Of a stretch of DNA of 52,949 nt, positions 10,516-44,728 are shown one piece after another; position 1 is the stretch's first letter, and each line of letters starts with the position of its first letter. The stretch comes from Polyangiaceae bacterium (GTDB lineage: Bacteria; Myxococcota_A; Polyangia; Polyangiales; Polyangiaceae): contig JAXLYP010000017.1 of NCBI GenBank assembly GCA_046351395.1, forward strand, positions 193,508 through 246,456, given 5' to 3'. The translations under genes were made by a program, and so were the position numbers. The notes beneath the pieces were generated by a model. It did no database searches. It saw only the letters and a program-made list of their open reading frames with translations, and was not told the DNA's origin.

Positions 10516-10516
10516 G

Positions 10517-24616: not shown

Positions 24617-24653
24617 CGACGAGGGCGCCGGGGTACTCTCCGCGGTCACGCCG

Positions 24654-26060
24654 ATGACCGAAGCGCTACCCGACGACGCCGAGATCTTGGGAACGCTCGA
24701 TGAACTCATCGAGCGCCTTTCGAAGAGCAAGCGCGGCGCTGATCTCCGGAACGCGCTGCACGACGCGAAGCGCTTGAGGAGCGCGACGCTCAAGTGGGGC
24801 ATCATCCCGCCTCCGCCCGATGCGCGGCGCGAGCTGCTCGACCGCGTCGCGCAGCTCCTCGCGCTCGCGGCGGGTGCCCAGGCGGACGGGGACGACGGTG
24901 AGCGTCCGCCGGAGTCGGCGCGGTCGCGGTCTTCGAGGAAGGCGCGCGGCGCGGCCCTCGAGGAGAAGCCCGCGCGTGGCGCAGCGTCGCTCGGTTCGCG
25001 CATCCACGACGAGGCGACGAAGCCCGAGGGGCGGTTTCCGAGCATCCACGACGAGGAGACCGCGCCCCTCCCGAGCAGGCCGCCCACCGCGGCGGAGCGC
25101 CGACGAGGCAAGGCGCGCGCGGAGGGCGCGTATGCGAAGTCGGTGCACGACGAGGACACCGCGCCCGGGCCCGAGGTTCGTGCGGCGCAAGCGGTGGAGG
25201 CGCGCGTGATTCGCCGGCCCGAGATCGCCGACGAGGAGACGGTCCGCGAGGGCTATCGCAAGGCCGCTCCACCGAAGTCGTCTCCCACACCGGTGGCCGC
25301 GCCGCCGTCGAAGGCGCCGTCCGCGCCTCCGCCGAAGGCGCCCTCCCCGACGCCACCGAAGGTGCCGTCTGCGCCTCCGCCGAAGGCGCCCTCCGCACCG
25401 CCGCCGAAGTCGCCGTCCGCGCCCCCTGCACCGCACCCCAAGCTCCAGCGGACGCAGAGCGGCGCGGTCGCGCTCGCGCCGCTCCAGGACCTCGACCTCA
25501 GCGACCTCGAGCTCTTCGCGGCGCCGCCGAGCAAGAGCTCGCTCTCGGCGAGCCCGCAGCTACCGCCGATCGTCATGCCCGCATTGTCCGACGGGGGCGC
25601 CGCGCCCAAGTCGAAGATCGAGGGGTTCAGCACGTCGGTCTCCACGCCCAAGATGGCCGCGGTGCGGCCGCCCCCGTCCAAGCCGACCGAGCCGCTGCCC
25701 GCCGTGAAGGAGGCTTCGGGCGTCACCATCGTGCGCGGGAATGCGTCGGCGTGGCGGCCGCTCCCCGCCGCTCCCGCGGTGCTCGTGCGCACCGTCCAGT
25801 CGACGGCGACGGGCGTGATCGCGCTCGTCAAGCTGCCCGTCTCGGCGCGTGTCCCCTCGAAGCGAGTGGACGGCGAGGTGCAGCTCTTCGTGTTGATTGG
25901 AGGCATCACGCTCGGTCCGCACGAGCTCGCCGCGGGCGACGCGTGTCGCCTCGAGAAGGGCTCGACGCGACAAGCGATCACGACGACGGGCCCCGCGACG
26001 ATCCTCTACGTGGGCCCGAGCCTCGGCGGCGACACGACCGATCCACAGGCCGACGTCTGA
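24654..26060 (+). CDS. Repeat-containing Pro-rich protein with C-terminal cupin-like beta domain, unknown function
   Basis: ATG 24654. Four (I/V)HDE(E/D)T-type motifs. PPPKAPSA-type octapeptide repeated about 5 times. The C-terminus (…GEVQLFVLIGGITLGPHELAAGDACRLEKG…) looks like a small beta-barrel. Confidence 0.6.
   Translation: MTEALPDDAEILGTLDELIERLSKSKRGADLRNALHDAKRLRSATLKWGIIPPPPDARRELLDRVAQLLALAAGAQADGDDGERPPESARSRSSRKARGAALEEKPARGAASLGSRIHDEATKPEGRFPSIHDEETAPLPSRPPTAAERRRGKARAEGAYAKSVHDEDTAPGPEVRAAQAVEARVIRRPEIADEETVREGYRKAAPPKSSPTPVAAPPSKAPSAPPPKAPSPTPPKVPSAPPPKAPSAPPPKSPSAPPAPHPKLQRTQSGAVALAPLQDLDLSDLELFAAPPSKSSLSASPQLPPIVMPALSDGGAAPKSKIEGFSTSVSTPKMAAVRPPPSKPTEPLPAVKEASGVTIVRGNASAWRPLPAAPAVLVRTVQSTATGVIALVKLPVSARVPSKRVDGEVQLFVLIGGITLGPHELAAGDACRLEKGSTRQAITTTGPATILYVGPSLGGDTTDPQADV
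25300..25430 (+). repeat. Tandem 24-bp coding repeat (~5 units; PPPKAPSA octapeptide)
   Basis: ccgccgaaggcgccctcc-type units read directly in the sequence. Protein: APPSKAPSAPPPKAPSPTPPKVPSAPPPKAPSAPPPKSPSAPP. Confidence 0.75.
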
Positions 26061-26075
26061 GCGCGGAGGGAACGG

Positions 26076-27797
26076 GTGGCCGACGCGCAGACCGAACGCT
26101 GCGAGGGATGTGGCGCCGAGCTGACCGCGGGCGCCCGCTTCTGCGCGACGTGTGGGCGCCCGGTCGCCGCGCTCGCTCCAACCGAGCTGCACGCCCCGAG
26201 GTTCGACGCGACCCCCGCGATGCGCCTCGCGCCGGGGACGATGCTGGGGAGTTACCGGATCGAGGCGCTCCTCGGCGAAGGCGGGATGGGCGTCGTCTAC
26301 CGCGCGCGCGACGAGGTCATGCACCGCACGGTCGCGCTCAAATGTCTGCACACGAACCTCGCGGGGGACGCGGGGATCCGCCGGCGCTTCGGGCGAGAGG
26401 CGCGCGCGCTCGCGACGGTCGTGCACCCGAACGTCGTGCGCGTGTACGACTTCGTCGATCACGAGCACGTCCCCGCGATCGTCATGGAGCTCGTCGACGG
26501 ACCGAGCCTGTCCGCGCACGTCGCGGCGTGGCGTGAGTCCGTCCCGTTCGAGGAGATCCGCGGCCTCTTCGGGCAGATCCTCGCCGCCGTCGGCCACGGG
26601 CACGACAACGGCATCATCCACCGCGATCTCAAGCCAGACAATGTGCTGCTCGCGCGGGAGGCGCGCGGGCTCCGCCCGAAGGTCGTGGATTTCGGGCTCG
26701 CGAAGATCCTCGAGGGGACGACGTACACCGTCACGGGCGCCCTCCTCGGGACGTGCCGGTACATGGCGCCCGAGCAGGTGCAGGACCCGGAGCGCGCGGA
26801 TCTGCGCGCCGACATCTATTCGCTGGGCGTCACCCTCTATCAGCTCGTGACGGGGAGCGTGCCCTTCGATCGGGCGACCCACTTCGCGGTCATGATGGCG
26901 CACGTCAACGAAGCACCGCGCCCGCCATCCTCGATCCGCGCGGACGTCCCTGCGCTCCTCGAGCGCCTCGTCCTCGACGCGCTCGCGAAGGATCCGAGCG
27001 CGCGCCCTCCCTCGTGCGCCGTGTTCCGCGAGCGGCTCGACGAGGCGCTCGCGGCGTACGAGCCGGAGGACGCACCGCCGGGCTCGCTCCCGCGCGTCGT
27101 GCGAGGGGCGGAGACGGCAGATCTCGTGCTCGTGCCCGAGGGTCCGTTTCTCTTTGGCCCGCACCGGCGCCGCGTCGATTTGGACGCGTTCTACATCGAT
27201 CGGACGCCGGTCACGAACGGCGAGTTCGCCGCGTTCGTGAGGGCCACGCGATATGCGCCGTCGGACGAGGGGAGCGGACGGTTCCTGCATCACTTCCGGG
27301 GTGGGAAGGCGCCCGTCGGCGCGGAGCATCACCCGGTGACGCACGTCTCGTGGACCGACGCGCGGGCGTACGCGACGTGGGCGGGCAAGCGACTCCCGAC
27401 GGAGGCGGAGTGGGAGAAGGCCGCGCGAGGGACGGACGGACGGAGGTACCCATGGGGCCGCGCGGAGCCCACCGCGGATCGCGCGAACTACGGGAAGCTG
27501 AACGGTGGAACGACGCCCGTCACCGCGCACGCCGCGGGAGCGTCACCGTACGGTGTGTTGGATCTTGCGGGCAATGTCTGGGAGTGGTGCGAGGACGTCG
27601 ACGATCCCGCGTTTTACCTCGACGGTCCTACGCGGAACCCGAAGAACGCGCCGCGCGCGGGCGAGCGCGCGCGGCACGTGGTGCGCGGCGGCTCCTGGCT
27701 CTACGGCCCGCGCGCCCTGCGCACGGTGTACCGCGCGAGCTTCGAAGCGCACTATCGCGTCGCGAGCGGCGGATTCCGCTGCGCGCGCTCCGCCTGA
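26076..27797 (+). CDS. Ser/Thr protein kinase with N-terminal zinc-ribbon and C-terminal FGE-sulfatase (SUMF1-like) domain
   Basis: CEGCGAELTAGARFCATCG; kinase motifs GEGGMGVVYRA, VALK, HRDLKPDNVLL, DFGLAK, APE. FGE domain: PVTHVSWTDARAYATWAGKRLPTEAEWEKAARG, GNVWEWCED, VVRGGSW. Confidence 0.85.
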   Translation: MADAQTERCEGCGAELTAGARFCATCGRPVAALAPTELHAPRFDATPAMRLAPGTMLGSYRIEALLGEGGMGVVYRARDEVMHRTVALKCLHTNLAGDAGIRRRFGREARALATVVHPNVVRVYDFVDHEHVPAIVMELVDGPSLSAHVAAWRESVPFEEIRGLFGQILAAVGHGHDNGIIHRDLKPDNVLLAREARGLRPKVVDFGLAKILEGTTYTVTGALLGTCRYMAPEQVQDPERADLRADIYSLGVTLYQLVTGSVPFDRATHFAVMMAHVNEAPRPPSSIRADVPALLERLVLDALAKDPSARPPSCAVFRERLDEALAAYEPEDAPPGSLPRVVRGAETADLVLVPEGPFLFGPHRRRVDLDAFYIDRTPVTNGEFAAFVRATRYAPSDEGSGRFLHHFRGGKAPVGAEHHPVTHVSWTDARAYATWAGKRLPTEAEWEKAARGTDGRRYPWGRAEPTADRANYGKLNGGTTPVTAHAAGASPYGVLDLAGNVWEWCEDVDDPAFYLDGPTRNPKNAPRAGERARHVVRGGSWLYGPRALRTVYRASFEAHYRVASGGFRCARSA

Positions 27798-29636: not shown

Positions 29637-30266
29637 TCAAGGGCAGCCCCCATCGATCACGAGTCCAGTCCGGCCGAGCGGCTCGGCGTCGGGCGTCCAG
29701 TCGAGCCCGTCCGCGAACGACATCACGCCCTCCACGTCCACCGCGCAGGGGGGAGCTGAAATCGCGAGCTTCCCACCGAGCGAGGTCGCGTTCGCGATCT
29801 CGCCGATGGGTGTAGGCGGACCGATCCCGGTCCACGGCGCGCAGTCGTCCGCGTCGTGGGTGACGCGCGCGAACTTGATGAGATCGAGCGGGTATTGCCC
29901 GAGATCGACGACCTCCATCGAGAGCGCGTCGAGCCCGAGCTGGAAGCAGAGATCCCGCGCGTCGTCGCGCTTGAGGATCGCGACGGCCCCGGCGTTCGTG
30001 AAGAGGTTGATGGCGCTGTAGGCGTCGCAGGGACCCGCGCACGATCCACTCCCCGTGCTGCTCGACGCGCTCGCGCTCCCGGCTCCACTTCCGGTCGCGC
30101 TCGAGCCGACGGTCGTTCCGCCCCCATCATCCTCGAGCGTGGCGACGTCGCGACACGCGCCGAGGAGCACAATCGCGATCACGAGGGTCGCCCGCGGCGC
30201 CGTGCGCTCGCGAAGGAGTGCTCCGAGGGAGGTCCCTTGGGGTGCGGTTTCGCCGCGCGCCCTCAT
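29637..30266 (-). CDS. Lipoprotein, unknown function (translationally coupled to the TssC-like gene)
   Basis: ATG 30266 overlaps the upstream stop (ATGA). Lipobox IVLLGAC. Gly/Ser-rich linker followed by a Cys-containing globular domain. Confidence 0.65.
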   Translation of the reverse strand: MRARGETAPQGTSLGALLRERTAPRATLVIAIVLLGACRDVATLEDDGGGTTVGSSATGSGAGSASASSSTGSGSCAGPCDAYSAINLFTNAGAVAILKRDDARDLCFQLGLDALSMEVVDLGQYPLDLIKFARVTHDADDCAPWTGIGPPTPIGEIANATSLGGKLAISAPPCAVDVEGVMSFADGLDWTPDAEPLGRTGLVIDGGCP

Positions 30267-31615
30267 GGATCGAGCGTCCCTTTCAAGCTGAGCGTGAAGA
30301 ACGCGCCCATGTGCTTGAAGTGCGGGCGCAGCCTCAGATCGAAGGAGCGCCACGCCTCGCCGTCGGTCGAGTCGCGCACGATCACCTGCACCTTCCGCAG
30401 CGGCCTTCGCCCCCGGAGCGCGGGGGGCACGACCTCCCGATCGGCGACGTATTGGCCCGCCCAGTCGTTGAGCTCGCGTTCGTCGTCCACTGCCGTCGTC
30501 GCCCATGATGGCTTTTCGACACGCCGAGGGGGCGCGCCCGGGACGAGCGCCTCTGGGTCGTTGATTTGGAAGGAGCGGTGCACCACCTTCAGGTACTGAC
30601 CAATCCTCGTGGAGATGAACACGTAGGGGAGCTCGGTGCCGAGCCGGTGGTTGAACTCGGCGGCGCGCGCCTCCTCCGAGTTGCCGAAGCGCTTGGGCTT
30701 CATGAGCGACCGCGCCGAGAAGAAGCCCGCGGACGTCGCGTCGACGAAGGAGAGGGGAATGAACCCCTCCTCCGACAGATCGTACTCGGTCCGCTCGCCG
30801 AGGTTCGCGTCGAGCGGCGAGATCGCGCCCTCGGGCGCGCGCGGCAGGTCCTCGATCAGGCCGTCCGCGCGCCCGACGATGTTCGGACACCAGCGGTACT
30901 TCGCGAACGACGACGTGAGGCGCGTCGCGAACGCAACGACCGCGAGCCCCCAAGCGAGATCTTCGGCGCGAGCGGTCTCGTCGTACGTGAAGCCCCCGAG
31001 CGTCTCGGTCGCCTCACGGGCAACGGCGAAGGGAGCGCGGAGGAGGAATCGGCCCACGGTGAGCCCCAGGAGGGATGCGCTCGCCTGGTCTCGCAGTGCA
31101 GCGAACGCGCGGTGATGCGCGGCGAAGTGCGCAAGAAGATCGACCGTGCCGATCGCGCGGCGGTCCTCGATCCCGAAGAAGCCTGGTGAGGCGGCCGCGA
31201 TGAAGGGGGCGAGGGAGCACGTCCCGACCTCCGCGATGCGCTCGAGGAGCGTGATGTCCTCCGGCGTGGGGTCGAACTCGAAGTCGGCGAGGATCGCCCC
31301 GTACGGTCGGTCGGTCGCGCCTCGGGCCGTCACCGCAAAGAACGCGCTCTCGCGCGCGGGCGCGCCGGAGCGCACGAGGTCGACGCGGAGCTCGTCGAGC
31401 GTACACGGGTAGAACGCGATCTCGATGTTCTCGCGGAAGTTCGTCCGCTCGACCAGGAACGCGAGGCTCCGCCACGCCCGCTCGAGGCGCTGGAACTTCG
31501 GGTGATGGAGGATCGCGTCGAGCTGCGCGGCGATCCGACGGTCCAGCGAGTCGATGATCGCGTCCGCGCGCGTGGCGGCGAGATCGACGAGGAGCGCATC
31601 ATCGTGCCGTACCAT
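30263..31615 (-). CDS. tssC: TssC/VipB-like contractile sheath large-subunit homolog (orphan, N-terminally short)
   Basis: 450 aa. QLDAILHHPKFQRLERAWRSLAFLVERTNFRENIEI, APFIAAASPGFFG, FATRLTSSFAKYRWCPNIVG, EEGFIPLSF, LRLRPHFKHMGAFFTLSL. These are collinear with the canonical TssC blocks as I recall them from V. cholerae VipB. Confidence 0.8.
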   Translation of the reverse strand: MVRHDDALLVDLAATRADAIIDSLDRRIAAQLDAILHHPKFQRLERAWRSLAFLVERTNFRENIEIAFYPCTLDELRVDLVRSGAPARESAFFAVTARGATDRPYGAILADFEFDPTPEDITLLERIAEVGTCSLAPFIAAASPGFFGIEDRRAIGTVDLLAHFAAHHRAFAALRDQASASLLGLTVGRFLLRAPFAVAREATETLGGFTYDETARAEDLAWGLAVVAFATRLTSSFAKYRWCPNIVGRADGLIEDLPRAPEGAISPLDANLGERTEYDLSEEGFIPLSFVDATSAGFFSARSLMKPKRFGNSEEARAAEFNHRLGTELPYVFISTRIGQYLKVVHRSFQINDPEALVPGAPPRRVEKPSWATTAVDDERELNDWAGQYVADREVVPPALRGRRPLRKVQVIVRDSTDGEAWRSFDLRLRPHFKHMGAFFTLSLKGTLDP

Positions 31616-31675
31616 CCTGGCATTCGGACCTGCGCGACCTCGCTTGTCAAGGCACGGTGCGCCGATGAAGGCGCC

Positions 31676-32371
31676 GTGATAACGAGCGTCGTGGACGCGA
31701 CCCCGCCCGCCCCGAAACCCGACTCGACGCCTTGCGAGGTGTGCCGGCGTCCTCGCTTCGCGTGCGTGTGCGACCGCGTCGTCGCTTACCCCACCGAGCG
31801 GCGCGTGTTGATCCTGCAGCATCCGCAGGAGCAGGACGCGCTCCTCGGCACCGCGCAGCTCCTCGCGGCGAGCTTGCCGGCGGCGCGCATCGTCATCGGG
31901 TTGAGCTGGCCGAACCTCGGCGCGGCGCTCGGCGAGCCCGAGGTGGACGTGAAGAAGTGGGCGGTGTTGTTCCCCGATCGCGAAGCGGAAGGCGAGGGCG
32001 TCGCCACGCGCCGCGGAGCTCCGGTGGATCCGCGCGCGCTCTCGGGGATCGTCGTGCTCGATGGCACGTGGTCGAAGGCGAAGGCGCTCTGGTGGCGGAA
32101 CCCGTGGCTCACGAAGCTGCACCGCATGACGCTGAAGCCGAAGCAGCCCTCGATCTACGGCAGGCTGCGAGCGGAGCCGAAGCGCGAATACGTCTCCACG
32201 CTCGAGTCCGTGGGCGCCGCGCTCACGCTCTCGGGCGAACCCCCGGAGATCGAAGCGGGCCTCTCGCGCGTCTTTCGGACGCTCGTGCAGCGTGTCCGAG
32301 ACGCGGACGTCGCCCCCGAGGAGCGCAGGCTTTCGAAGAGCACGCGGCCCCCGCGACGACGGCCGGGCTGA
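31676..32371 (+). CDS. DTW-domain protein (tRNA-uridine aminocarboxypropyltransferase family)
   Basis: N-terminal Cys cluster CEVCRRPRFACVCD. DGTWSKAKALWW (DTW motif). Start GTG 31676 (alternative 31691). Confidence 0.75.
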   Translation: MITSVVDATPPAPKPDSTPCEVCRRPRFACVCDRVVAYPTERRVLILQHPQEQDALLGTAQLLAASLPAARIVIGLSWPNLGAALGEPEVDVKKWAVLFPDREAEGEGVATRRGAPVDPRALSGIVVLDGTWSKAKALWWRNPWLTKLHRMTLKPKQPSIYGRLRAEPKREYVSTLESVGAALTLSGEPPEIEAGLSRVFRTLVQRVRDADVAPEERRLSKSTRPPRRRPG

Positions 32372-32622
32372 CTGGACGACCCGGCGTCTGCCCGTGGATA
32401 CGTGCGACGACCACCGAGCGCACGCAATTCCGCGGAGGACCGCGGCTGAATGGCTCCGTTCTGCGGCGGGTCCTCCACCGCATTCCACGACCGCCCTCCT
32501 GGGCGAAGTGGACAAAAGGCTCCGAATGTCCTCCTCGCGTTGGCGCGCGACGAGGAACTCCGCACGTCGCGGGTGCTCCGCGCGCCGCTCCCCGGGCCAA
32601 CGCGCTGATAGCGTCTCCATCG

Positions 32623-34107
32623 ATGGACGCAGAACCGGAGTCCGACGCTCGCGCGCCGTCGTCGGCGCCGACCTCCGCACCCCTGTCGGACGCGGAGCCC
32701 GCGGTGTCCACGCCAATGTCTGTCGCCGATCCGCCGCGACCCGAGCCCGCGCGACCGACGAGGCCCAGCCGAGATCGACGCGTCGTCGCGGGGATCGTGG
32801 CCGCGCTCGTGGCGGTCGCGGTCGCCGCGTGGGTGATCGTTCGCGCGCTCGCGGGAGCGCCGCGCGTCGCGTTCGGTGTGGCCGCGCTGTCGTCCGACGA
32901 GGCGATCCTCTTCACGCGCCGCGGGGACGGCGCGGCGGCGCGCGTGAACGCCGTCGAGCTCGTCCGCGCGACTGGAGGCCTCCGGTGGACTCATGACGTG
33001 AGCCCACTCGAACCGTTCGAGGTGTCCGGGTACTCCGCAGTCGCCGCGAGTGACGATCGCGTCGTCCTCTCCGGCGCCCGCGACGGGGGGACGGTCGTCG
33101 AAGCGCTCGTTCGGACGTCGGGCGACTTCGCGTGGGCGACCGTCGTCGCGCGGGACGCGTCCACGCCGCGCGCGGGGCCGATGCTGCTCGTGGACGCGCC
33201 TCGCGTGTACGCGATCCACGCGAAGGCGGGTGGGGGAGCGGCGATCACCGCGCTCGAGCTGGACGCGGGCCACGCGCTCTGGACGCTCGACCTCGCCTCG
33301 CCGGACGCGCCGGTCGTGCTGCTCGCGGCGGAGCGTCTCCTCGTCGGGGGGAGCGACGGCGTCGCGCTCGTCGACGGCGTCACCGGTGGAGTGAAGCGCG
33401 CGGTCCCGATGAGACAGATCGCGTGCGAGACGCCGCTCGGGGTCGTCGGGTTCGACGGGGCTCATCACGTGACCCTGTTCGCCCCGCCCGGGCCGACCGG
33501 TGAATCGGGGGCGTCGGTGACCGAGCTCGATCGAAATGCGTCGCGTGGCCCGTGCGGCGTGCGCGGCGAGGATGTGGTGTTCAGCGTCGTCCGGGACGGC
33601 AGGCGCGGCCTCATGCGACTCGAGCCGACGACGGGGAGGCAGCGGTGGATCGTGGATCTCGGCTCGGTCGAGCTCGGCGCATTCGAGACGGTCGACGGGC
33701 GGCTGCCCCGCTTCCTCCCCGTCGCGCTGACGCGTCGAGCGGACGACGCGACCCACGTGGCGGTCGTCGACGTGGACGAGGGCGTCGTCGTCAGAGACCC
33801 ACCCATCGACGCGCGCGCGAGCGCGTTCGTGAGCGCTGAGCGCGCGTGGATTCGCGCCGGTTCGGTGATCGTCGCCCTCGACCCTGCGACGGGGAACATC
33901 GAGCGCGCAACCTCCTATCCCTCGCTCTTTCGGGAGGGCGTCGTCCGTCGCGACGACGCGCGGTTCGGTGTCCTCTTCGCCGTCGGGGACGACAGTCGCC
34001 GTCCCCCCGACCTACCGTGGATCGCGATCGATCTCGCGACCGCGCTCACGCGCCGCACGAACGGTGGGGTCGCGTCGACCGACGTGACGGCTCGCGGCTG
34101 GCCCTGA
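32623..34107 (+). CDS. Membrane-anchored PQQ-like beta-propeller repeat protein
   Basis: Pro/Ala-rich N-terminus, TM VVAGIVAALVAVAVAAWVIV, then recurring blades (GGLRWTHDV, GHALWTLDL, GRQRWIVDL). Confidence 0.5.
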   Translation: MDAEPESDARAPSSAPTSAPLSDAEPAVSTPMSVADPPRPEPARPTRPSRDRRVVAGIVAALVAVAVAAWVIVRALAGAPRVAFGVAALSSDEAILFTRRGDGAAARVNAVELVRATGGLRWTHDVSPLEPFEVSGYSAVAASDDRVVLSGARDGGTVVEALVRTSGDFAWATVVARDASTPRAGPMLLVDAPRVYAIHAKAGGGAAITALELDAGHALWTLDLASPDAPVVLLAAERLLVGGSDGVALVDGVTGGVKRAVPMRQIACETPLGVVGFDGAHHVTLFAPPGPTGESGASVTELDRNASRGPCGVRGEDVVFSVVRDGRRGLMRLEPTTGRQRWIVDLGSVELGAFETVDGRLPRFLPVALTRRADDATHVAVVDVDEGVVVRDPPIDARASAFVSAERAWIRAGSVIVALDPATGNIERATSYPSLFREGVVRRDDARFGVLFAVGDDSRRPPDLPWIAIDLATALTRRTNGGVASTDVTARGWP

Positions 34108-34276: not shown

Positions 34277-35062
34277 GTGCCCACGAGACGCGTTGCCCTG
34301 TGGTGTTCGGTTGCGTGCATGTTCGTCGCGGGTTGCGCGAGCTCGAAAGGGGTCGAGCGCGAATCCGCCGGCGACCGCTCCCCCGCGACGAGCCCTGCAC
34401 CGCGGATCTCGCGCGGGCCGATCGTCGTCAACGGCTACCCCACGAATGTCGGAAGTGGGTTCGCCGCCGTCGCGACGTACGCGGGATTCACCCGCGACGG
34501 GCGGGAGCTCGGCCTCTGCTGGAGTGACGGCGCCTCCGACGAGATGCATTGTCGCTTCGAGGACCGCGCGGGGGGCGCACGCGGGTTCGACGCGCCCTTG
34601 GCGACGCAGTTCACAATCGCGAGCGGCGAGGTCGCGACCTGGCTCGCGGCGCAGGGCATCCGGCCGTTCGAGCGAATGAAGGGACCGGACGCCGCCGCGT
34701 GGGACTCGCTGCCGCCGCCGCTCGTCGGAGAGTGGAAGCACCCCGAGATCACCCTCGAAGTGCGGGAAACTCCGCCCGTCGTCGCGCCCGGGGGTGTCGC
34801 CACGACGCCGCCTCGCCTCGAGCTCGGTGGCAGCATGCCTGGCCGCGCGCCCTTCTTTCCCTACGTGTTCGAGCCCGCGGACGATCCGCTCGACGCGCAC
34901 TACATGCAGGCGGTCTTGCTCGCGCTCTCCCCCGATGGGACCGAGCTCGGCCTCATCACACAATCCCCTCGGGGGGAGTACGACACGAGCTTCGTCATCC
35001 GCCGGATCCCACTCGACGACCTCGGGGCTCGCATCAAATTCCGCCGGCCGTGCTGCCGCTGA
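34277..35062 (+). CDS. Lipoprotein, unknown function
   Basis: Lipobox MFVAGC. Non-repetitive 261-aa product with high GC3. Confidence 0.65.
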   Translation: MPTRRVALWCSVACMFVAGCASSKGVERESAGDRSPATSPAPRISRGPIVVNGYPTNVGSGFAAVATYAGFTRDGRELGLCWSDGASDEMHCRFEDRAGGARGFDAPLATQFTIASGEVATWLAAQGIRPFERMKGPDAAAWDSLPPPLVGEWKHPEITLEVRETPPVVAPGGVATTPPRLELGGSMPGRAPFFPYVFEPADDPLDAHYMQAVLLALSPDGTELGLITQSPRGEYDTSFVIRRIPLDDLGARIKFRRPCCR

Positions 35063-35103
35063 CACGGGGGCGTCCGATGGACGTTCCCTTCACGCCAAGC
35101 CCA

Positions 35104-35850
35104 TCAGAACGAGCCGTGCACGAGGATCCCGGTCGGACCCACCGACACTTCCGCGGTGACACCCGACGTCGCGGCGCGCGCGCCGCGCGTCTCGTCGGGG
35201 ACCTGCTTCGCCCCCACGGCGAGGAGGGGAATGCCGACACCGATCATGGCGATGCCACCGATGAGGAAGCCCGTCGCCACCCCCGATTGCACCTCTGCGT
35301 CCGCGTACCGGGCGTTGCACGCCGCGTCGACAGGGTCGATGCTGCAGGAGTTGGCGAGGGTGTCGTTGGCGAGCGAGAGTCCGATCGCGCTGGCGGTGAG
35401 GGTGACCGCGCCCGTGCCCAAGAGGACGCCGCCCGCGATCATCATCTCGGGGCTGTTCGTTCGCGTAGGACCGACGTATTTCGGAACAGGCGGTCCAACG
35501 GGGACCTGCACCGCTCCCGCGATGGTGAGCGGCAGCCCGACGAGGACGAGCGGACCACCGACGATGGTGCCGAGTGAACCCCAGAGGATGCCGCCCCAAC
35601 CGCCCTCGGCGAACGACACGCCGGCCGTGACGATCCCGACGGTGCCGAGCCCGAGCAGCACGCTGCCGCTGACCACCATCCCGGGGCTGTTCATCCGCGT
35701 CTCCGACTGCGGCGCGGGCGCGGGCGTGCCGGCGGGGGGAAGCGAGGTGATCGTCTCCTCCGCGCGCGTCGTGGACGGGATGGCGAGCGCGAGCGACGTT
35801 GCACAAGCAGCTGCCGCGAGAGGTCCGATGCCGGGCCCTGGTCTCTTCAT
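35104..35850 (-). CDS. Secreted/membrane protein with Gly-rich hydrophobic repeats, unknown function
   Basis: Signal peptide …ACATSLALAIPSTTRA. Repeated NSPxMxxxGxxLLGxG hydrophobic segments. Ends ILVHGSF*. Confidence 0.6.
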   Translation of the reverse strand: MKRPGPGIGPLAAAACATSLALAIPSTTRAEETITSLPPAGTPAPAPQSETRMNSPGMVVSGSVLLGLGTVGIVTAGVSFAEGGWGGILWGSLGTIVGGPLVLVGLPLTIAGAVQVPVGPPVPKYVGPTRTNSPEMMIAGGVLLGTGAVTLTASAIGLSLANDTLANSCSIDPVDAACNARYADAEVQSGVATGFLIGGIAMIGVGIPLLAVGAKQVPDETRGARAATSGVTAEVSVGPTGILVHGSF

Positions 35851-36203
35851 GCGGCGAATCAGAACAGGAGCGGCGCCAACGCGAAAGGTGAATGGCGGCG
35901 GGAGCCCGTGGGAGCGAGCTGCCGCCCGAGATCGTTCAGGAAACCGCGCGTCGGTTCAGGGCGGCCGCGCCCAGCGCGATCCTTCAGGGCGTAGCTCGTC
36001 CGCCGCGAAGGTCTCCACAGGGTCGTCGCTCGAGGGCGTCACTCCACGGAGCAGACTCAGGCCACCGGTGTAGTCCAAGGACCACGCGCGCCATTGTCTG
36101 CATACCCAGTGTCGATCGCGTCATCACGCCCGGGTGTCCGCGCGGGACTCGCGGTGGCGAGCGCGTCGTCCGACTGGAGTATCACCGAGCGGGCCGGCTC
36201 TCT

Positions 36204-36223
36204 GACAGTATGGAAATCCATGG
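36204..36223 (+). promoter_or_regulatory. 20-bp conserved element, copy 1 (GACAGTATGGAAATCCATGG)
   Basis: One of three near-identical elements in the 35851-36679 intergenic region. Contains the inverted repeat ATGGA-AA-TCCAT. Confidence 0.5.
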
Positions 36224-36333
36224 TAGTGCGTGGTGACGGCAGCGCGCTTCGAGCGCAGTCGGCGTGATAGGGAGAACCCTTGGTTCGGTGCGCGTGAAAC
36301 GAACCCGCGCCGATCGGGCGCGCTGGTCGCCGA

Positions 36334-36353
36334 GACAATATGGAAATCCATGG
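36334..36353 (+). promoter_or_regulatory. 20-bp conserved element, copy 2 (GACAATATGGAAATCCATGG)
   Basis: As copy 1. Preceded by gcgctggt, as is copy 3. Confidence 0.5.
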
Positions 36354-36403
36354 GTTTGGTGAGCCGGATAGGCGGTTCTCGGGACGCGCTGGTTCTTTCC
36401 TCA

Positions 36404-36423
36404 GACAATATGGAAATCCCTGG
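36404..36423 (+). promoter_or_regulatory. 20-bp conserved element, copy 3 (GACAATATGGAAATCCCTGG)
   Basis: As copy 1. Followed by an A8 run at 36449-36456. Confidence 0.5.
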
Positions 36424-36679
36424 GCGGCGCGCACGAACGTGGCCGCCGAAAAAAAAGGCGCAGGAATCCCTCCATGGCGGGGACGAGGAATATCTCTCTC
36501 GCTCCACGACGGTCGCGCGCATTTCAGGTGTGTTGGTTTGATGGGTTGCAATGGACGCAATCGCTGCGGACGAATGCAGGTCTTGCGCGTCTCGCGTCTG
36601 CCGTGAAGTACCCCCCTTGGGATGGAGTCTAGCGCAGGAGGCCGTCGTCGTGGTGTGAAAGCTGCAGCCGCTGAGGGGC

Positions 36680-37753
36680 GTGACGACCTCCATTCCGCCA
36701 GCGTTCGACGAGGCGCTCGACCCTGCTCCGAGATGTGAGGACGCCGTCGCCATCCTGGACGCGCTCAGCGCTGCGGTGCTCGCGGCGCGCTCCGACGGCG
36801 TCATCACGTGGGCGAACCCATGGGCTGCGCGCGTCCTCCGGCGCTCACGGGCCTCGATCATCGGGCGAAACCTCGCGGATGTGCTGCCTCTCTCGTTCGC
36901 GGTCGGGGAGGACACGCCCTCGGAGCACCGCCGCGGTGAGCTCACTTATCAAGCGGACGACGGCTCCCGTTGTCAGCTCGGATTTTCGCTCGCTCGGCGG
37001 GCCGTCACGGCGCCGGACGAGGTCGCCATCATCGCGCTGTTCCAAGAGATCTCGAGCCTCATCGAGCTGCGACGCCAGCGCGATCGACTCCTCCAGATGG
37101 CGGCGCTCGGGGACGCCCTCCCAGCGGTGCTCCACGAGGTCCGCAACCCGCTCGCGGCGATCACCACGGCGCTGGAGGTTTTGACCGAAGACGAGGGGCC
37201 GCTGCAAGCGGATCTCCACGCGGTTCTGAACGAGGCGCGCCGCGCCACCCTGACGCTCGACGGGCTCGGGGGCCTCGCGCGCGAAACCCACAGTCGGAAG
37301 TGGGAAGCCATCGATCACGCGGTCGCGGAGGCCACCCGAGTGCTCGAACCCACCGCCGCGAGGCGGGGTATTTCCCTTCGAACGACGGGGCCGGCGCTCC
37401 CGCTCCTGCCGCTCGATCGCGCGGCGATCAGCGGCGTGGTGTTCAATCTCGTGCGCAATGCCATCGACGCGTGCGGCGAGGGTGATGTGGTCGCCGTCGA
37501 GGCCCGTTTGCCGTCGCCGAACGAGTTCCTGCTCGAGGTTCGCGACACGGGCCATGGCATGTCCGTTCCCATCGTGAAGCGCTGCACGGAGCTCTTCTTC
37601 ACGACGAAGGATACCGGGTCTGGGATTGGGCTCGCATTGTGCAAGCGGTTCGCGGAGTCGTCGGGAGGATCGCTGGAAGTGGAGAGCGAACTCGGGCGGG
37701 GGACGACGGTATCGGTTCGCGTCGCTCTCCGCACCGACGCACGAGGAGGGTGA
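36680..37753 (+). CDS. PAS-domain sensor histidine kinase
   Basis: PAS-like N-terminus (AILDALSAAVLAARSDGVITWANPWAARVL). H-box LHEVRNPLAAI. N/G boxes VFNLVRNAIDA, DTGHGM, GSGIGLALC. Confidence 0.85.
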   Translation: MTTSIPPAFDEALDPAPRCEDAVAILDALSAAVLAARSDGVITWANPWAARVLRRSRASIIGRNLADVLPLSFAVGEDTPSEHRRGELTYQADDGSRCQLGFSLARRAVTAPDEVAIIALFQEISSLIELRRQRDRLLQMAALGDALPAVLHEVRNPLAAITTALEVLTEDEGPLQADLHAVLNEARRATLTLDGLGGLARETHSRKWEAIDHAVAEATRVLEPTAARRGISLRTTGPALPLLPLDRAAISGVVFNLVRNAIDACGEGDVVAVEARLPSPNEFLLEVRDTGHGMSVPIVKRCTELFFTTKDTGSGIGLALCKRFAESSGGSLEVESELGRGTTVSVRVALRTDARGG

Positions 37754-37754
37754 C

Positions 37755-38120
37755 ATGTCACGTGTCGACAACCTGAACAAGATTCTACGTGGGCTGCAGA
37801 GCGCTTCGCCGGACGTCGAGGCGAGCGCGCTCATCTCGGACGATGGGCTCATGATCGCGAGCGCCCTGCCACAGCACATCGACGAGACGCGCGTCGCCGG
37901 GATGAGCGCCACGCTCTCGAGCCTGGGTACGCGCGCGGCGGCCGAGCTCGAGCGCGGCAACGTCGAGGAGGTCCTCGTGCGGGGCTCGAACGGCTATGCC
38001 GTCATGCTCGCCGCGGGGTCCGGGACGCTCCTCTTGGTCCTTGCGAGCAAGCAGGCGAAGCTCGGCCTCATCTTCCTCGACATGCGTCGGGCGGTCGACG
38101 ACATCCGTCGCGTCCTCTAG
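37755..38120 (+). CDS. Roadblock/LC7 (MglB-like) domain protein
   Basis: ATG lies 1 nt after the HK stop, with GAGGAGGG upstream. LRGLQSASPDVEASALISDDGLMIASALP…LLLVLASKQAKLGLIFLDMRRAV is the typical Robl_LC7 pattern. Confidence 0.75.
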   Translation: MSRVDNLNKILRGLQSASPDVEASALISDDGLMIASALPQHIDETRVAGMSATLSSLGTRAAAELERGNVEEVLVRGSNGYAVMLAAGSGTLLLVLASKQAKLGLIFLDMRRAVDDIRRVL

Positions 38121-38266
38121 ACCCGTTCGAGAAGCGAGCAGATCCCCGGGCCCGGGCGCGACAAAGCGTCATCGGGGTGACGCCCGAGCGTCATCGTTTT
38201 GACAGTCTTCGCGCGATCCACGCGTTAGAACGTACCCAACAGCCGATCGATAGGAGGGGGTCTTCG

Positions 38267-39026
38267 ATGCCCAATACGATTTTGTTCGATCAAGGTGCCC
38301 ACAAGAACGTCCTGCTCGAGGACGTGTCCGCGGGCAGCCACGCCCGTACAAGCCAATCAGCACGTCATCGTCGACCACGCGTCGGGCATGATCCTCGACC
38401 CGGGCGGACACAAGGTCTACTCGAAGGTCCTCTCCGGCACGCTCGCCACCCTCGGCAAGGCGAAGCTCGAGATCCTGTTCCTGTCGCACCAAGATCCGGA
38501 CATCGTCGCCGCGACGAATGGCTGGCTGATGACCACGGACGCCGTGGGCTACGTCTCCGCGCTGTGGACTCGGTTCGTCCCGCATTTCGGGCTCGATCAC
38601 CTCGTCCAGTCCCGCCTCCTGCCGATCCCGGACGAGGGCATGCGGATGAAGCTGGGCCAGAGCGAGCTGCTCATCCTCCCCGCGCACTTCCTCCACTCGC
38701 CGGGAAACTTCCACGTCTACGACCCCGTCTCGAAGATCCTCTACAGCGGCGATCTCGGGGCATCCATTGGTGGGGATTACGTCGAGGTGACCGACTTCGA
38801 CGCGCACCTCCCACTCATGGCGGGGTTTCACCGGCGCTACATGGCTGGGGGGGCCGCGATGCGCGGCTGGGCGAAGATGGTCCGCCAGTTGCCGATCGAG
38901 ATCATCGCGCCGCAGCACGGGGCGCTGTTTCGCGGGAAGGAGATGGTCGATCGGTTCATTGGATGGTGCGAGGGCATGCAGTGCGGACTGGATGTGATGG
39001 GCGATGGTTACCGCATCCCCGCTTGA
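38267..39026 (+). pseudogene. MBL-fold / oxygen-binding di-iron (ODP-like) protein gene with apparent 5' frameshift
   Basis: Strong RBS (TAGGAGGGGG) 8 nt before ATG 38267, giving MPNTILFDQGAHKNVLLEDVSAGSHA with high GC3. The rest (…VQANQHVIVDHASGMILDPGGH…ILFLSHQDPDIV…) is in the 38295..39026 frame. The frames meet near CCC 38343-38345. Confidence 0.6.
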
Positions 39027-40158
39027 GTCCCCGCGCCGCACCGTGCTCGTCGTGGAGGACGAGCCGATGCTGCGCGCCTCGATGGTCAAGGGGCTCGCGA
39101 AGCTCTCGTCGGTCGCGCTCGTCGACGCCGGCTCGCTGCGAGAGGCGCGGCGACTCGCCGAGCTGCACCGCCCCGTGCTGGTCGTGAGCGATCTCGACCT
39201 GCCCGACGGCTCGGGGATCGAAATGGCGTCGACGCTCGACGAGCTCGGTCTTCGCGTCCCGATCCTGTTCGTGTCGGCCTACGTGCGGGAGTACCAGGGG
39301 CGATTGCCGAAGCGGCCGGGGATCGAGGTCTACGAGAAGCCGCTGCCCCTCGAGCGCCTTCGGAGCGCGGTGGAGGCGCACCTCGGGATCGAAGCCGAGG
39401 CTTCGCCGTTCGGTGTGATCGACTTCGTCCAGCTCGCCGGCATGGGGCGGCGCTCGGTCGTCATCGAGGTGCGAGGCCGGATCGCGGGGAGCGGGCGAAT
39501 CGTCATCCGCGCGGGCGAGGTGTGGTCGGCGCGCGACGAGCGGGGCGAAGGAATGGAAGCGTTCAAGCGCCTCGCGTTCCTTCGGGACGCGGTCGTCACG
39601 TGCCGCTCGTTCGATCGTCGCGACTCGTCTCCTCGCATCATCCAAGGGGGCTGCGAGAGTGTCCTGCTCGAGGCGGCGCGCCAGTACGACGAAGCGGGCG
39701 GGGCGCCGCCGGAGCGCGACGAGCTCGGCGACCTCGACGAGGGCTGGGACTCCCGAGACGCGGGCCGCGGTGACAGCTGGGAAGGCTCCGCGCGGTCGCA
39801 CGACCCCGTCGTCTCGTCCACGCCGGTGCCGCCCGGCCGGCATCGGTCCGAGGTTCGCCCGGTCGTGCCGGAGCCCCGAGGGGAATGGCGCTCCGCGACC
39901 CTGACGCCCGCGGTCGACGAGCCGCCGCCGACTCAGCCCTCGACGCGACTTCGTGACGTCGATCCGCGCGAGCTCGCGACGGTCGCACGGCTCGCGGCGG
40001 GGTTCTCCGACGTGTACGAGCGGGGCGTCGACGCGCTGCTCGCGAAGGACTATCGCAAAGCGTACGCGGCGTTCCTCGAAGCGCGAGAGCTCTCGCCGGA
40101 GGACCGGCGGGTCGAAGCGAACCTCGTCCGCCTCCGAGAGATGGGGTTCGGAACGTGA
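39004..40158 (+). CDS. Response regulator: receiver + DUF4388 domain + TPR-like C-terminus
   Basis: TVLVVEDEPML…VLVVSDLDLPDGSG (receiver). FGVIDFVQLAGMGRRSVVIEV…IVIRAGEVWSARDERGEGMEAFKRL (DUF4388 pattern). C-terminal YRKAYAAFLEARELSPED. Confidence 0.75.
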   Translation: MVTASPLESPRRTVLVVEDEPMLRASMVKGLAKLSSVALVDAGSLREARRLAELHRPVLVVSDLDLPDGSGIEMASTLDELGLRVPILFVSAYVREYQGRLPKRPGIEVYEKPLPLERLRSAVEAHLGIEAEASPFGVIDFVQLAGMGRRSVVIEVRGRIAGSGRIVIRAGEVWSARDERGEGMEAFKRLAFLRDAVVTCRSFDRRDSSPRIIQGGCESVLLEAARQYDEAGGAPPERDELGDLDEGWDSRDAGRGDSWEGSARSHDPVVSSTPVPPGRHRSEVRPVVPEPRGEWRSATLTPAVDEPPPTQPSTRLRDVDPRELATVARLAAGFSDVYERGVDALLAKDYRKAYAAFLEARELSPEDRRVEANLVRLREMGFGT

Positions 40159-40817
40159 GGCGCGCCGCGTTCGCCGTTCCCGGAGAGGAACTCGGAGTAT
40201 GGGCGCCCGCCACGCTCCTGTCGTGCGGCGCCCTGGGCGCGGTCGTCGTCGCGGTCCTCCTCGGATCCCCCGCCGTCCCCGCGGAGGCGAGCTCGATGTC
40301 GCGCGCGACGCCGGGCGCGGAGGGCGCCGCAGCGACGGTGTCCACGGACGCGATCCGCCCGCCGACCGCGCCGTCGATCGCGCCGCCGCCGCCTGCACCG
40401 AGCGCGATCGCTGCACCCCCGGGCCCCTCGGGGTCGGGCGGGGCGATCCCTCAATGTCCACCCGTGCGGGTGGGCTTCCAATCGAACGCGTTCGGCCCGA
40501 GCCCCGCGGCGATCACCGAGCTCGACCGGCTCGCGGCGTGGCTGCGCGAACATTCGGACACGACGCTCGTCGTGAGCGGGCACGCCGACGCGGTGGGCAC
40601 GGAGGACGGCAATTTGCGCCTCAGTCACATCCGCGCGGAGTCGATCGCGCGAGAGCTCTCGGCGCGAGGGGTGGCTCGGAGCCGCATGACGGTGCGGGGG
40701 TATGGAGCCTATCAGCCCCTCGAGGGCGTGCTCGAGGACGCCGCAGACAATCGAAGGGTCGTCATCTATGTCCGCGGGGATTGTCTCCGCGGCTTCGAGG
40801 AGGTCATAGGACCATGA
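40155..40817 (+). CDS. OmpA-family (peptidoglycan-binding OmpA_C-like) protein
   Basis: The GTG start overlaps the RR stop (GTGA). TM/signal, Pro-rich linker, then VVSGHADAVGTEDGNLRLSHIRAESIAREL…GYGAYQPL…DNRRVVIYV. Confidence 0.75.
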   Translation: MRRAAFAVPGEELGVWAPATLLSCGALGAVVVAVLLGSPAVPAEASSMSRATPGAEGAAATVSTDAIRPPTAPSIAPPPPAPSAIAAPPGPSGSGGAIPQCPPVRVGFQSNAFGPSPAAITELDRLAAWLREHSDTTLVVSGHADAVGTEDGNLRLSHIRAESIARELSARGVARSRMTVRGYGAYQPLEGVLEDAADNRRVVIYVRGDCLRGFEEVIGP

Positions 40818-42384: not shown

Positions 42385-43050
42385 CTACGGGCTCGCGGCC
42401 GCCGCGGTCTGCCCGGCTCCGTCGTTTCCTGTGGGCTCGACGACCGGGCTCGCCCCGGTGTCGCGGGCGCGACCCACGAGCTCGTAGTCGTGCTCGAATT
42501 CGGCGCGGACGGCGCCGCGCTCGTCGACCAACCAGGTCGGGGCGACGTGGCGGGGCACTTTGATGCGCTCGGACGGCACGTGACTCCGGAACGCGACGTC
42601 CCAGAGCGGGCTCGTCACACCGTGGTTGAGGCGGGGCGTCTTGTGGTGGTGCAAGAGGTGATGCCGGCGCGCCCAACGCCCGTACGCCGTGGTCGGGGGC
42701 CGCGTGTGGATCCAGCGGTGGAGGACCTCGTACCCGCCATAGACGAGGGAGAAGCCGGCGGCGAACGAGAGGGCGCGACGCGGTCCCACGAGGGGCGTGA
42801 GGGCGCCGCCGAGGAGAGGGATAGCGACCGCGGCGGCGCGCACTTTGCGCGCGGTGGGCGCGAAATAGGTCGGGGTCGCGTGGTGGGCGAGGTGCTCGGC
42901 GTTGAACTCCGCCGCGAGCCCCGAGGGCGTGAGCTTCTCGAGGAGGTTCGGCTTGAGCGCGCGCTTCGGTCCGTGACCGACGAACCGATGAATCGCGTAT
43001 TCGCTCGCCGACCAGCCGAGCCCGCCGAGCGCCATCCAGAGTATCGACAT
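42385..43050 (-). CDS. Fatty-acid hydroxylase / sterol-desaturase-family membrane protein
   Basis: Histidine boxes HRFVGH, EHLAHH, HRWIH, RHHLLHHH. Start ATG 43050 overlaps the TetR stop (TGATG). Confidence 0.75.
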   Translation of the reverse strand: MSILWMALGGLGWSASEYAIHRFVGHGPKRALKPNLLEKLTPSGLAAEFNAEHLAHHATPTYFAPTARKVRAAAVAIPLLGGALTPLVGPRRALSFAAGFSLVYGGYEVLHRWIHTRPPTTAYGRWARRHHLLHHHKTPRLNHGVTSPLWDVAFRSHVPSERIKVPRHVAPTWLVDERGAVRAEFEHDYELVGRARDTGASPVVEPTGNDGAGQTAAAASP

Positions 43051-43820
43051 CACACACGTCCCTTCTTCTTCTTGATCCCAGGCTTCGATGCGGCGGGCTC
43101 GGTCTCTCCGGGCCGCGCGGTGCGAGTCAGTTGGTGCGCGGCGGAGAGCCGCGCGGGGGTCGCCCCCCAGCTCGTGAGCAGCGCGCCGGACGCGAAGCGA
43201 CCAATGTCTGCGACGCTCGGCGCGCGGCGCGCGACGCGACGCGCTTTGTCCATGCAGTGAGCCCCGTGGAGCGCGGACCAGAACGCGTAGACGCGCGCGT
43301 TCGCGTCCCCGGGGGAGAGCGCCTCGGTCTCTTGAGCGAGCGCGAAGACGGACTCCATGCGCTCGAGGAAGGCCCCGAGGAGCGGAGCGGTCTTCGTCGC
43401 CTCTTCGTCGGAGAGGAGTTGTCGGGGGTCCCCGAGGAGGCGCGCGACGAGGCGCCACTCGTGCGGGTGCGTATCGGGGAGAGAGAGGTAGAGGTCGGCG
43501 AGCGTGAGGAGCGTCGCGAGGCTCGCCGTAGCGGGTGCGACCTTGCCGAGCGTCGCGGTGAGGGTCTCGAGCTCGGATTCGAAGTGCGCGCTGATCTCGC
43601 GCACGGCGCGCCGCTGCAGGGCGGCGATGAGCGCGTCCTTGGAAGGGAAGTAGCGGTAGATGGCCGTCGTCACGAGCCCGAGGGTCTGCGCCACGCGCTG
43701 GAGGGTCAGCCCGTCGAGATCGTCGGACTCGAGGATCTCCATCGCGCGGTCCAGGATCGCCTCCGTGCGGAGCTCCCGCCGGTCGCTCGCCCGCGTCGTG
43801 GCGTCGCCGTTGTGAATCAT
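43050..43820 (-). CDS. TetR/AcrR-family transcriptional regulator
   Basis: HTH LTLQRVAQTLGLVTTAIYRYFPSKDAL. ATG 43820 (alternative GTG 43826). Confidence 0.85.
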   Translation of the reverse strand: MIHNGDATTRASDRRELRTEAILDRAMEILESDDLDGLTLQRVAQTLGLVTTAIYRYFPSKDALIAALQRRAVREISAHFESELETLTATLGKVAPATASLATLLTLADLYLSLPDTHPHEWRLVARLLGDPRQLLSDEEATKTAPLLGAFLERMESVFALAQETEALSPGDANARVYAFWSALHGAHCMDKARRVARRAPSVADIGRFASGALLTSWGATPARLSAAHQLTRTARPGETEPAASKPGIKKKKGRV

Positions 43821-43845
43821 GTTCACAATAGTGAACCACGTTCAC
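43811..43845. promoter_or_regulatory. Two adjacent palindromes (putative TetR operators) overlapping the tetR start
   Basis: TGTGAATCATGTTCACA (43811-43827) and GTGAACCACGTTCAC (43831-43845). Both have GTGAA(C)-N-(G)TTCAC symmetry. Confidence 0.55.
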
Positions 43846-43972
43846 GTTGGTGTCAAGCGGGGAGGGATGAAAGGGTTGGGGAGGGATGAACGAGTTGGGG
43901 CGTACGCTCGTCAGACGCCATGCGAACGTTCCCCGCGTCGCGGGATTCCTCCCAGCACTCGAACGACCCCGG

Positions 43973-44728
43973 ATGACGCGCTTCTCTCGAACTTCAACGT
44001 GGGCGATGTGCGCGCTGATCCTCGCGGGGTGCGGCGGCAGTCCCGCGCGTGTCGCGGGGGACCGCGGTCCGAGCGCGTCGGCGAGCGTGGCGGCGAATCC
44101 ACCCGGGGCCACGAGCGCGCCCGAGCCGGTGGGAGGGGACGGCGAGCGGGTCGTGGCGGGCGAGTCGCCCGGGACTCCCGTGATCGCGCCGCCGCCCCCG
44201 GAGGAGCCGCGCCCCGCGCTGCTCTCGACGTGTGAGGAGCGCCGGAGCATCGTGATCCACAAGGCGGAGCGGACGTTGGAGCTTCGATGCGGGGACGCGC
44301 TCGCGGCGCGGTTCGCGGCGTCGCTCGGGAATGCGCCGGAGGGCGCGAAGCAGCACGAGGGGGACGGGCGAACGCCGGAGGGGGACTACTTCATCAGCAT
44401 GAAGTACCCGAGCCAGTACCATCGGTCGCTCCAGCTCGCGTATCCGAACGTCGCGGACGCGGACGCGGGGCTCGCGAAGGGGACGATCAAAGCGACGGAG
44501 CACGCGAAGATCGTGCAGGCGTACGCCACGTGTCGCGAGCCACCCCAGACGACGGCGCTCGGGAGCTTGATCCAGATCCACGGCGGCGGCGGCGGTCCGG
44601 ACGTGGGCGATTGGACGCTCGGTTGCGTCGCCGTGGACAACGACGAGATCGAGGTGGTGTTCGCGTTTCAAAAGCCGGGGTGCGACGCGCAGAATCGCCC
44701 GAACACGCTCGTCCGAATCCTTCCTTGA
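43973..44728 (+). CDS. L,D-transpeptidase (YkuD-domain) lipoprotein
   Basis: Lipobox LILAGC. HEGDGRTPEGDYFI, IQIHGGGG, WTLGCVAVDNDEI (catalytic His/Cys context). Confidence 0.75.
   Translation: MTRFSRTSTWAMCALILAGCGGSPARVAGDRGPSASASVAANPPGATSAPEPVGGDGERVVAGESPGTPVIAPPPPEEPRPALLSTCEERRSIVIHKAERTLELRCGDALAARFAASLGNAPEGAKQHEGDGRTPEGDYFISMKYPSQYHRSLQLAYPNVADADAGLAKGTIKATEHAKIVQAYATCREPPQTTALGSLIQIHGGGGGPDVGDWTLGCVAVDNDEIEVVFAFQKPGCDAQNRPNTLVRILP

Follow-up and report, generated by a model that had tools for sequence, protein, structure and literature searches.

A lineage-specific three-copy 20-bp element upstream of a conserved sigma-54-type promoter in a Polyangiaceae bacterium: a possible young binding-site cluster

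What are three near-identical 20-bp elements doing in the non-coding gap between two divergent genes of an uncultured Polyangiaceae bacterium, and do they belong to the control region of the signalling operon that begins at the end of this gap? The question was raised by a sequence-only reading of a 52,949-nucleotide stretch of contig JAXLYP010000017.1 (the whole stretch analysed, hereafter the window), which singled out the gap at 35851-36679 and proposed either an array of binding sites for a dimeric regulator or a structured or small RNA. The gap is bounded by the following genes:

35104..35850, minus strand: divergent gene for a predicted secreted or membrane protein of 248 aa, with a signal-peptide-like N-terminus and no Pfam family
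36680..37753, plus strand: PAS-HisKA-HATPase histidine kinase, first gene of the signalling module
37755-38120: Roadblock/LC7 protein
38295-39026: ODP-type metallo-beta-lactamase-fold protein (diiron)
39004-40158: receiver-DUF4388/PATAN response regulator
40155-40817: OmpA-domain protein

The starts of both flanking genes are those of the public annotation, and the two proteins (248 and 357 aa) are each 100% identical to the annotated versions. The module order, kinase, Roadblock/LC7, ODP, receiver (often with PATAN) and OmpA, recurs in distant Myxococcota (loci L008 and L086-L089, and also L091), and the upstream neighbours of the module differ in every genome. No convincing open reading frame had been reported for the gap, and this is confirmed by a GC3 profile that is flat over 35851-36679, with internal reading frames at 0.56-0.69 compared with 0.82-0.86 in the flanking genes. 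A pseudogene was also considered for the gap and rejected on the basis of the flat codon-position G+C together with the lack of any significant Pfam or PHROG match among these internal reading frames. The gap had further been described as A/T-richer than its surroundings, which is true of 36200-36600 (59-61% G+C) but not of 35851-36200 (69%). A G+C content of 59-60% is the ordinary non-coding level here, as the intergenic stretch 38100-38400 illustrates.

The elements themselves are all on the plus strand, at exactly the coordinates given by the sequence-only reading, and lie upstream of the signalling operon as it had stated:

36200..36223, plus strand: repeat copy 1 in its 24-nt form; 20-mer at 36204-36223, GACAGTATGGAAATCCATGG
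36314..36327, plus strand: box A preceding copy 2, TCGGGCGCGCTGGT, 6 nt ahead of the 20-mer
36330..36353, plus strand: repeat copy 2 in its 24-nt form; 20-mer at 36334-36353, GACAATATGGAAATCCATGG
36379..36393, plus strand: box A preceding copy 3, TCGGGACGCGCTGGT, 10 nt ahead of the 20-mer
36400..36423, plus strand: repeat copy 3 in its 24-nt form; 20-mer at 36404-36423, GACAATATGGAAATCCCTGG, with the short palindrome broken
36423..36456, plus strand: immediately downstream of copy 3, a G+C-rich hairpin (GGCGGC-N13-GCCGCC) and then an A8 tract

A search of both strands of the window for the 20-mer, allowing up to 3 mismatches, returned exactly these 3 matches compared with 0.00 expected from 100 dinucleotide shuffles. 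The 12-mer and 10-mer cores (ATATGGAAATCC and GACAATATGG) led to the same three sites. The copies agree at 19-20 of 20 positions and thus differ by at most one base, and the conserved unit reaches 22-24 nt (CTCnGACAnTATGGAAATCCnTGG). Together they cover about 220 bp. The reported spacings of 130 and 70 bp follow from the 20-mer coordinates and correspond, centre to centre, to 12.4 and 6.7 helical turns, so that the copies are out of phase. Each 20-mer holds ATGG half-sites of 4-5 bp, repeated directly with a period of 10 bp and separated by an A/T-rich spacer. The inverted repeat ATGGA-AA-TCCAT, which had been ascribed to every copy, is present in the array, but it is broken in copy 3, comprises only 5+5 positions and does not by itself exceed chance.

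Outside the element, the flanks of the three copies are statistically unrelated and unalignable, with box A as the single exception. The string gcgctggt, previously noticed before copies 2 and 3, proved to be part of this 14/15-nt box, TCGGG(A)CGCGCTGGT, the score of which was reached by 0 of 2000 shuffles. Degenerate fourth and fifth copies, which would lie near 36270 and 36463 and give a period of about 65 bp, do not rise above background, and Tandem Repeats Finder (TRF) reported no tandem array in the region. Two smaller features had been read correctly as well, namely the A8 run at 36449-36456 and the hairpin ggttcg-N12-cgaacc at 36282-36305. The hairpin and A8 tract that follow copy 3 are not terminator-like on either strand and may act as an intrinsic bend. 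Neither IHF nor DnaA boxes were found in the gap.

The array is also present in an independent assembly. A Logan contig (L082) is 100% identical to the window over 34921-36432, including all three copies, and it ends at 36432, within the G+C hairpin just past copy 3. Only the metagenome-assembled genome therefore joins the array physically to the kinase operon. The same species is contained in SRR14234094, at 99.85% identity (L092).

The three-copy element is the sole clustered non-coding repeat with at least three copies in the window. Other repeats there are of different kinds. A perfect-tandem 19-bp duplication (GGGGAGGGATGAAAGGGTT / GGGGAGGGATGAACGAGTT) at 43859-43896 lies in a 60-bp gap between a TetR-family gene (43050-43826, minus strand) and a YkuD L,D-transpeptidase gene (43886-44728, plus strand), where it doubles the ribosome-binding site and ATG and creates a 7-codon upstream open reading frame that overlaps the real start. 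Five repeats with a 24-nt period (25297-25440) and four 17-nt repeats (25002-25240) fall in a 590-aa open reading frame (24288-26060) without a Pfam family, the product of which is probably a repetitive, Ala/Gly/Pro-rich protein. The window also encodes a protein with a type VI secretion sheath (VipB/TssC) domain (30263-32716, minus strand; E = 3.9e-63), listed with a long N-terminal extension that overlaps a plus-strand reading frame with a PQQ/BamB-like repeat. In addition, there are two TLC/MFS-type ATP/ADP-transporter-like proteins (7693-10608, minus strand, and 21720-23159, plus strand), one of them fused to HEAT repeats, and a Ser/Thr protein kinase with an N-terminal zinc ribbon that is fused to an FGE-sulfatase (formylglycine-generating-enzyme-like) domain (26076-27797, plus strand).

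Comparison with related loci bears directly on whether the element is a conserved part of the operon. The closest operon relatives (82-86% nucleotide identity), namely L090 (85%) and L091 (82.6%), align with the window by BLAST only from 36548 rightwards, with a faint MAFFT similarity that may extend back to about 36505. Their upstream 147-230 nt are alike mutually, unlike the window, and free of the 20-mer. On the other side, the upstream gene has relatives in L083-L085 (about 75% identity) that align only up to 35897 and have another divergent neighbour at that place. Between these edges lies a stretch without counterpart, about 610-650 bp long:

35898..36547, strand not assigned: lineage-specific segment to which relatives show no detectable homology, delimited by BLAST edges at 35897 and 36548 and holding all three copies

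In every relative the far-side neighbours of the two flanking genes are different, and by these alignments the segment is lineage-specific DNA at a synteny breakpoint. Kinase-operon relatives at 74-86% identity (L008, L010, L090 and L091) contain neither the element nor homology to its segment, and the same is true of the upstream-gene relatives L083-L085. The 20-mer is likewise missing from the upstream regions of L086 and L089, and no repeat of this three-copy kind was seen in the orthologous intergenic regions. Upstream DNA and neighbouring proteins of the relatives showed no homology to the window, and a borderline local alignment of L091 8-126 to 35990-36120 of the window, the score of which was reached by 1 of 300 shuffles, was not reproduced by MAFFT. 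Absence of the element from orthologous upstream regions is the outcome that the sequence-only reading had itself named as refuting its proposal.

Wider searches gave the same picture. With its two variable positions left free, the 20-mer is absent, chance matches aside, from 185,579 GTDB species genomes, from JGI metagenomes and from IMG/VR. The matches that were returned are single and come nearly all from low-G+C contigs, mainly of gut Clostridia; two fall in loci above 58% G+C, both with unrelated flanks. The segment showed no similarity to plasmid and phage records, and a literature search with the 12-mer found nothing relevant. A dispersed repeat of the REP or MITE kind was considered as well; no further copy of the 20-mer was found in the window or the public collections, and no inverted-repeat pair brackets the lineage-specific segment. 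The element is real but private; protein-binding sites specific to this lineage are the most that it could represent, and it is no conserved element of regulation or RNA.

Conservation resumes close to the kinase gene, where a sigma-54-type promoter adjoins the start codon in every orthologue lineage examined (L009, L010, L008, L086/88, L089, L090 and L091):

36548..36679, plus strand: proximal control region of the kinase operon, about 130 nt, conserved with L090 and L091
36651..36666, plus strand: sigma-54-type promoter TGGTGTgaaagCTGCA (GG-N10-GC, -24/-12), with 14 nt from the -12 GC to the GTG start at 36680
L009, 34-49: orthologue promoter TGGTACggacgCTGCA
L010, 372-387: orthologue promoter TGGCACattcgGTGCA
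L008, ~866-881: orthologue promoter GGGCACagcgaTTGCG
L086/L088, L086 ~3974-3989: orthologue promoter GGGCCCgcttcGTGCT
L089, ~3974-3989: orthologue promoter TGGCACtcgccTTGCC
L090 and L091: orthologue promoter TGGTGCgaaagCTGCA

The distance from the -12 GC to the start codon is 12-14 nt (41 nt in L008), and a nearly leaderless sigma-54 mRNA is thus predicted, which in the window would start at about 36677, 1-3 nt ahead of the GTG. The pattern TGG-N9-TGCW has only 13 matches in the ~106 kb of two-strand window sequence, which gives a chance match within a 30-nt slot a probability of p ~0.004. The ancestral control region, judged by what the relatives retain, is this proximal stretch of about 130 nt and not the repeat array. 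It contains G+C-rich words that recur upstream of the orthologues: of 5 orthologue proximal regions, all 5 contain ACGCGC and 3 contain CTTGCGCG, and GCAATGG, GACGCAA and CTTGCGCG are common to 36548-36600 and the orthologue upstream regions, in both cases against a control of mononucleotide shuffles only. The true, conserved activator site of the operon may lie at these shared words. A weak minus-strand match to a sigma-54-like promoter (TGGAGGGATTCCTGC, TGG-N9-TGC, 7/12) was also noted at 36460-36474, facing the divergent gene; it is within chance expectation, with ~0.5 expected in the region on a base-composition estimate, and a real promoter there would put all three repeats inside a leader of ~600 nt.

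Given this arrangement, the most economical reading of the elements would be a binding-site array, that is, a young, lineage-specific cluster of three 20-24-bp sites for one DNA-binding regulator, to which a probability of roughly 0.4 is assigned. The copies sit in the non-coding gap between divergent genes, and their sharp edges against unrelated flanks imply either constraint on a discrete site or else an unusual patch-copying origin. Segmental duplication followed by drift would not be expected to yield such sharp-edged copies, whereas constraint on a discrete site would. The uniqueness of the array among the non-coding repeats of the window and its presence in the Logan contig also speak for this reading. 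Sigma-54 promoters depend on an activator bound upstream, and it is because the kinase promoter must be activated in this way that a site cluster is the best guess; the promoter downstream is context in favour of upstream protein binding. Each 20-mer could serve as a full site for a dimer, which would contact either two ATGG half-sites phased by 10 bp, in the manner of winged-helix response regulators, or else the short ATGGA/TCCAT inverted repeat. The bound protein would then add a species-specific input to one or both divergent genes, most plausibly by reaching the sigma-54 holoenzyme through a loop that spans the A8 tract and the hairpin.

Several observations count against such a binding-site cluster. 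The element is missing from orthologous upstream regions and its carrier DNA has no homologue, and the conserved control region comprises only the proximal ~130 nt, which means that the operon does not need the 20-mer sites. Near-identity over all 20 positions exceeds what is usual among the sites of one regulator, and neither the 185,579 species genomes nor the JGI metagenomes contain a similar site. No regulator was found nearby: the domain scan of the response regulator at 39004-40158, the binder suggested by the sequence-only reading, detected no DNA-binding domain, which makes this protein a poor candidate binder of the repeats, and the 53-kb window encodes no enhancer-binding protein (no GAFTGA motif). 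The spacing is wide and unphased, and the sites lie upstream of both genes at a distance, 261-461 bp from the -12 element of the kinase promoter and 354-573 bp from the start of the divergent gene. A more specific version, in which the array is a newborn enhancer with three dimer sites formed de novo in junction filler DNA and recruiting a lineage-specific activator more than 250 bp from a conserved, near-leaderless sigma-54 promoter, must be regarded as a long shot.

Among known systems, the array would work most like an enhancer or operator site cluster. Sites of sigma-54 upstream activating sequences (UAS) are closely spaced on one helical face, which allows activator dimers to assemble into a hexamer. 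NtrC sites at glnAp2 and the Nla28 sites of Myxococcus xanthus are examples, and the locus shares with them a long non-coding region in which several copies of a site precede a -24/-12 promoter, here with an A-tract between the three sites and the promoter. Unlike them, the sites are not adjacent but 70 and 130 bp apart, stand 261-461 bp away, are not conserved together with the promoter and have no activator gene nearby within the 53-kb window. Close spacing and conservation alongside the promoter are two defining UAS features that the array lacks. To our knowledge, the 20-mer motif resembles no published enhancer site. The array can also be likened, by inspection, to OmpR/PhoB-type arrays such as pho boxes, which share the direct ATGG half-sites with a 10-bp period, the A/T-rich spacer and the presence of several boxes; however, the half-sites here are just 4-5 bp and the operon contains no winged-helix regulator. 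Myxobacteria use many sigma-54 activators, and Myxococcus enhancer-binding proteins use tandem repeats, with characterised half-sites no more than 25 bp apart (PMC9765219), far closer than the copies here. The three-copy array is best described as a putative cis-regulatory site cluster. The 20-mer was also considered as a promoter in its own right, of the sigma-70, ECF or sigma-54 kind; it was rejected on the basis that inspection revealed no conserved partner hexamer at a fixed spacing and that no promoter-like sites were found.

The most serious alternative, although an unlikely one, is that the repeats are a neutral by-product, in which 35898-36547 is young filler at a rearrangement breakpoint and the repeats and box A arose from short templated copying or small duplications with indels, so that the 20-24-nt patches seem conserved merely through recency. 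The different far-side neighbours of both genes in all relatives and the end of homology at 35897 and 36548 are what such an origin predicts, the near-identity of the copies suits a young age, and the motif is private to the lineage, with neither a cognate regulator nor an RNA signal or mobile-element gene close by. However, 20-mers that differ by at most one base within unalignable flanks require selection or an unusual copying of patches, and the retention of box A with the 20-mer at variable spacing also suggests constraint. The same breakpoint in lineage-specific DNA could instead carry the relic of a mobile-element end, with subterminal transposase-binding sites (Tn7-, Mu- or Tn402-like) or integrase att arm-type sites and the remainder lost. 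Tn7-like and Mu-like ends carry several transposase-binding repeats of ~20-22 bp in the same orientation, an architecture that fits three direct ~22-bp sites over ~220 bp at an irregular spacing of 70-130 bp, with a TG (36203-36204; TGACAG...) before the outermost copy. This explanation is nevertheless doubtful to a greater degree. The reading frames scanned across the window encode no transposase, integrase or TniQ/TnsC-like domain, no inverted partner copy or second end was found in the 36 kb on the left or the 16.7 kb on the right, there is no tRNA in the window, and neither plasmid nor phage records show similarity. The lack of family members in GTDB species genomes, JGI metagenomes and IMG/VR speaks against an active transposon family, and with the orientation expected of such an end, the conserved operon would fall within the mobile element. 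A terminus is not definable, since homology of the relatives ends at 35897 and not at 36203, and no target-site duplication can be assigned.

Action at the RNA level is very unlikely. Under this explanation the repeats would act as protein- or RNA-binding motifs in a transcript, either a small RNA or a long 5' leader belonging to the divergent gene, for instance as mini-hairpins that contain GGA or through pairing of the quasi-palindrome between copies. A hairpin of 4-5 bp can form within each copy, two copies can pair with each other in the minimum free energy (MFE) fold, and the weak minus-strand match at 36460-36474 would read through all copies to the divergent gene. The structured or small RNA originally offered as an option nevertheless finds no support: the best hit of an Rfam 15 scan has E = 6.4, far below gathering scores, the MFE z-scores are -1.33 (plus strand) and -1.26 (minus strand), the segment has no homologues in the collections, and the promoter and terminator searches gave 0 sigma-70-like sites and 1 weak terminator-like site compared with 0.6 expected. 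An orphan mini-CRISPR array or a set of replicon iterons is compatible with the direct orientation and the repeat length of 20-24 nt, but is effectively refuted by the remaining evidence. The would-be spacers are unequal (106 and 46 nt) and, compared with the window, gave as their best match one G+C-rich 16-mer and nothing convincing; TRF found no array, the degenerate copies are at background, the scanned reading frames of the window contain no cas or rep domain, and for iterons the spacing is not in helical phase and the gap has no DnaA box.

The significance of the locus depends on which of these explanations applies. If the sites of the putative binding-site cluster are functional, a conserved sigma-54-driven signalling operon would have gained a species-specific input through newly arisen DNA, and this would be modestly interesting for the study of how regulation evolves in myxobacteria. 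If the newborn-enhancer version were true, the locus would offer a snapshot of the rewiring of an oxygen/redox (ODP)-Roadblock-PATAN signalling module, and if the repeats are neutral, it would be a rearrangement scar. Either way, no new RNA family, mobile element or conserved regulatory code is revealed. The more general by-product of the analysis is the conserved sigma-54 promoter that abuts the start of the kinase-Roadblock-ODP-PATAN module, the position of which predicts that this widespread module is under the control of an enhancer-binding protein and that its translation proceeds from a nearly leaderless mRNA.
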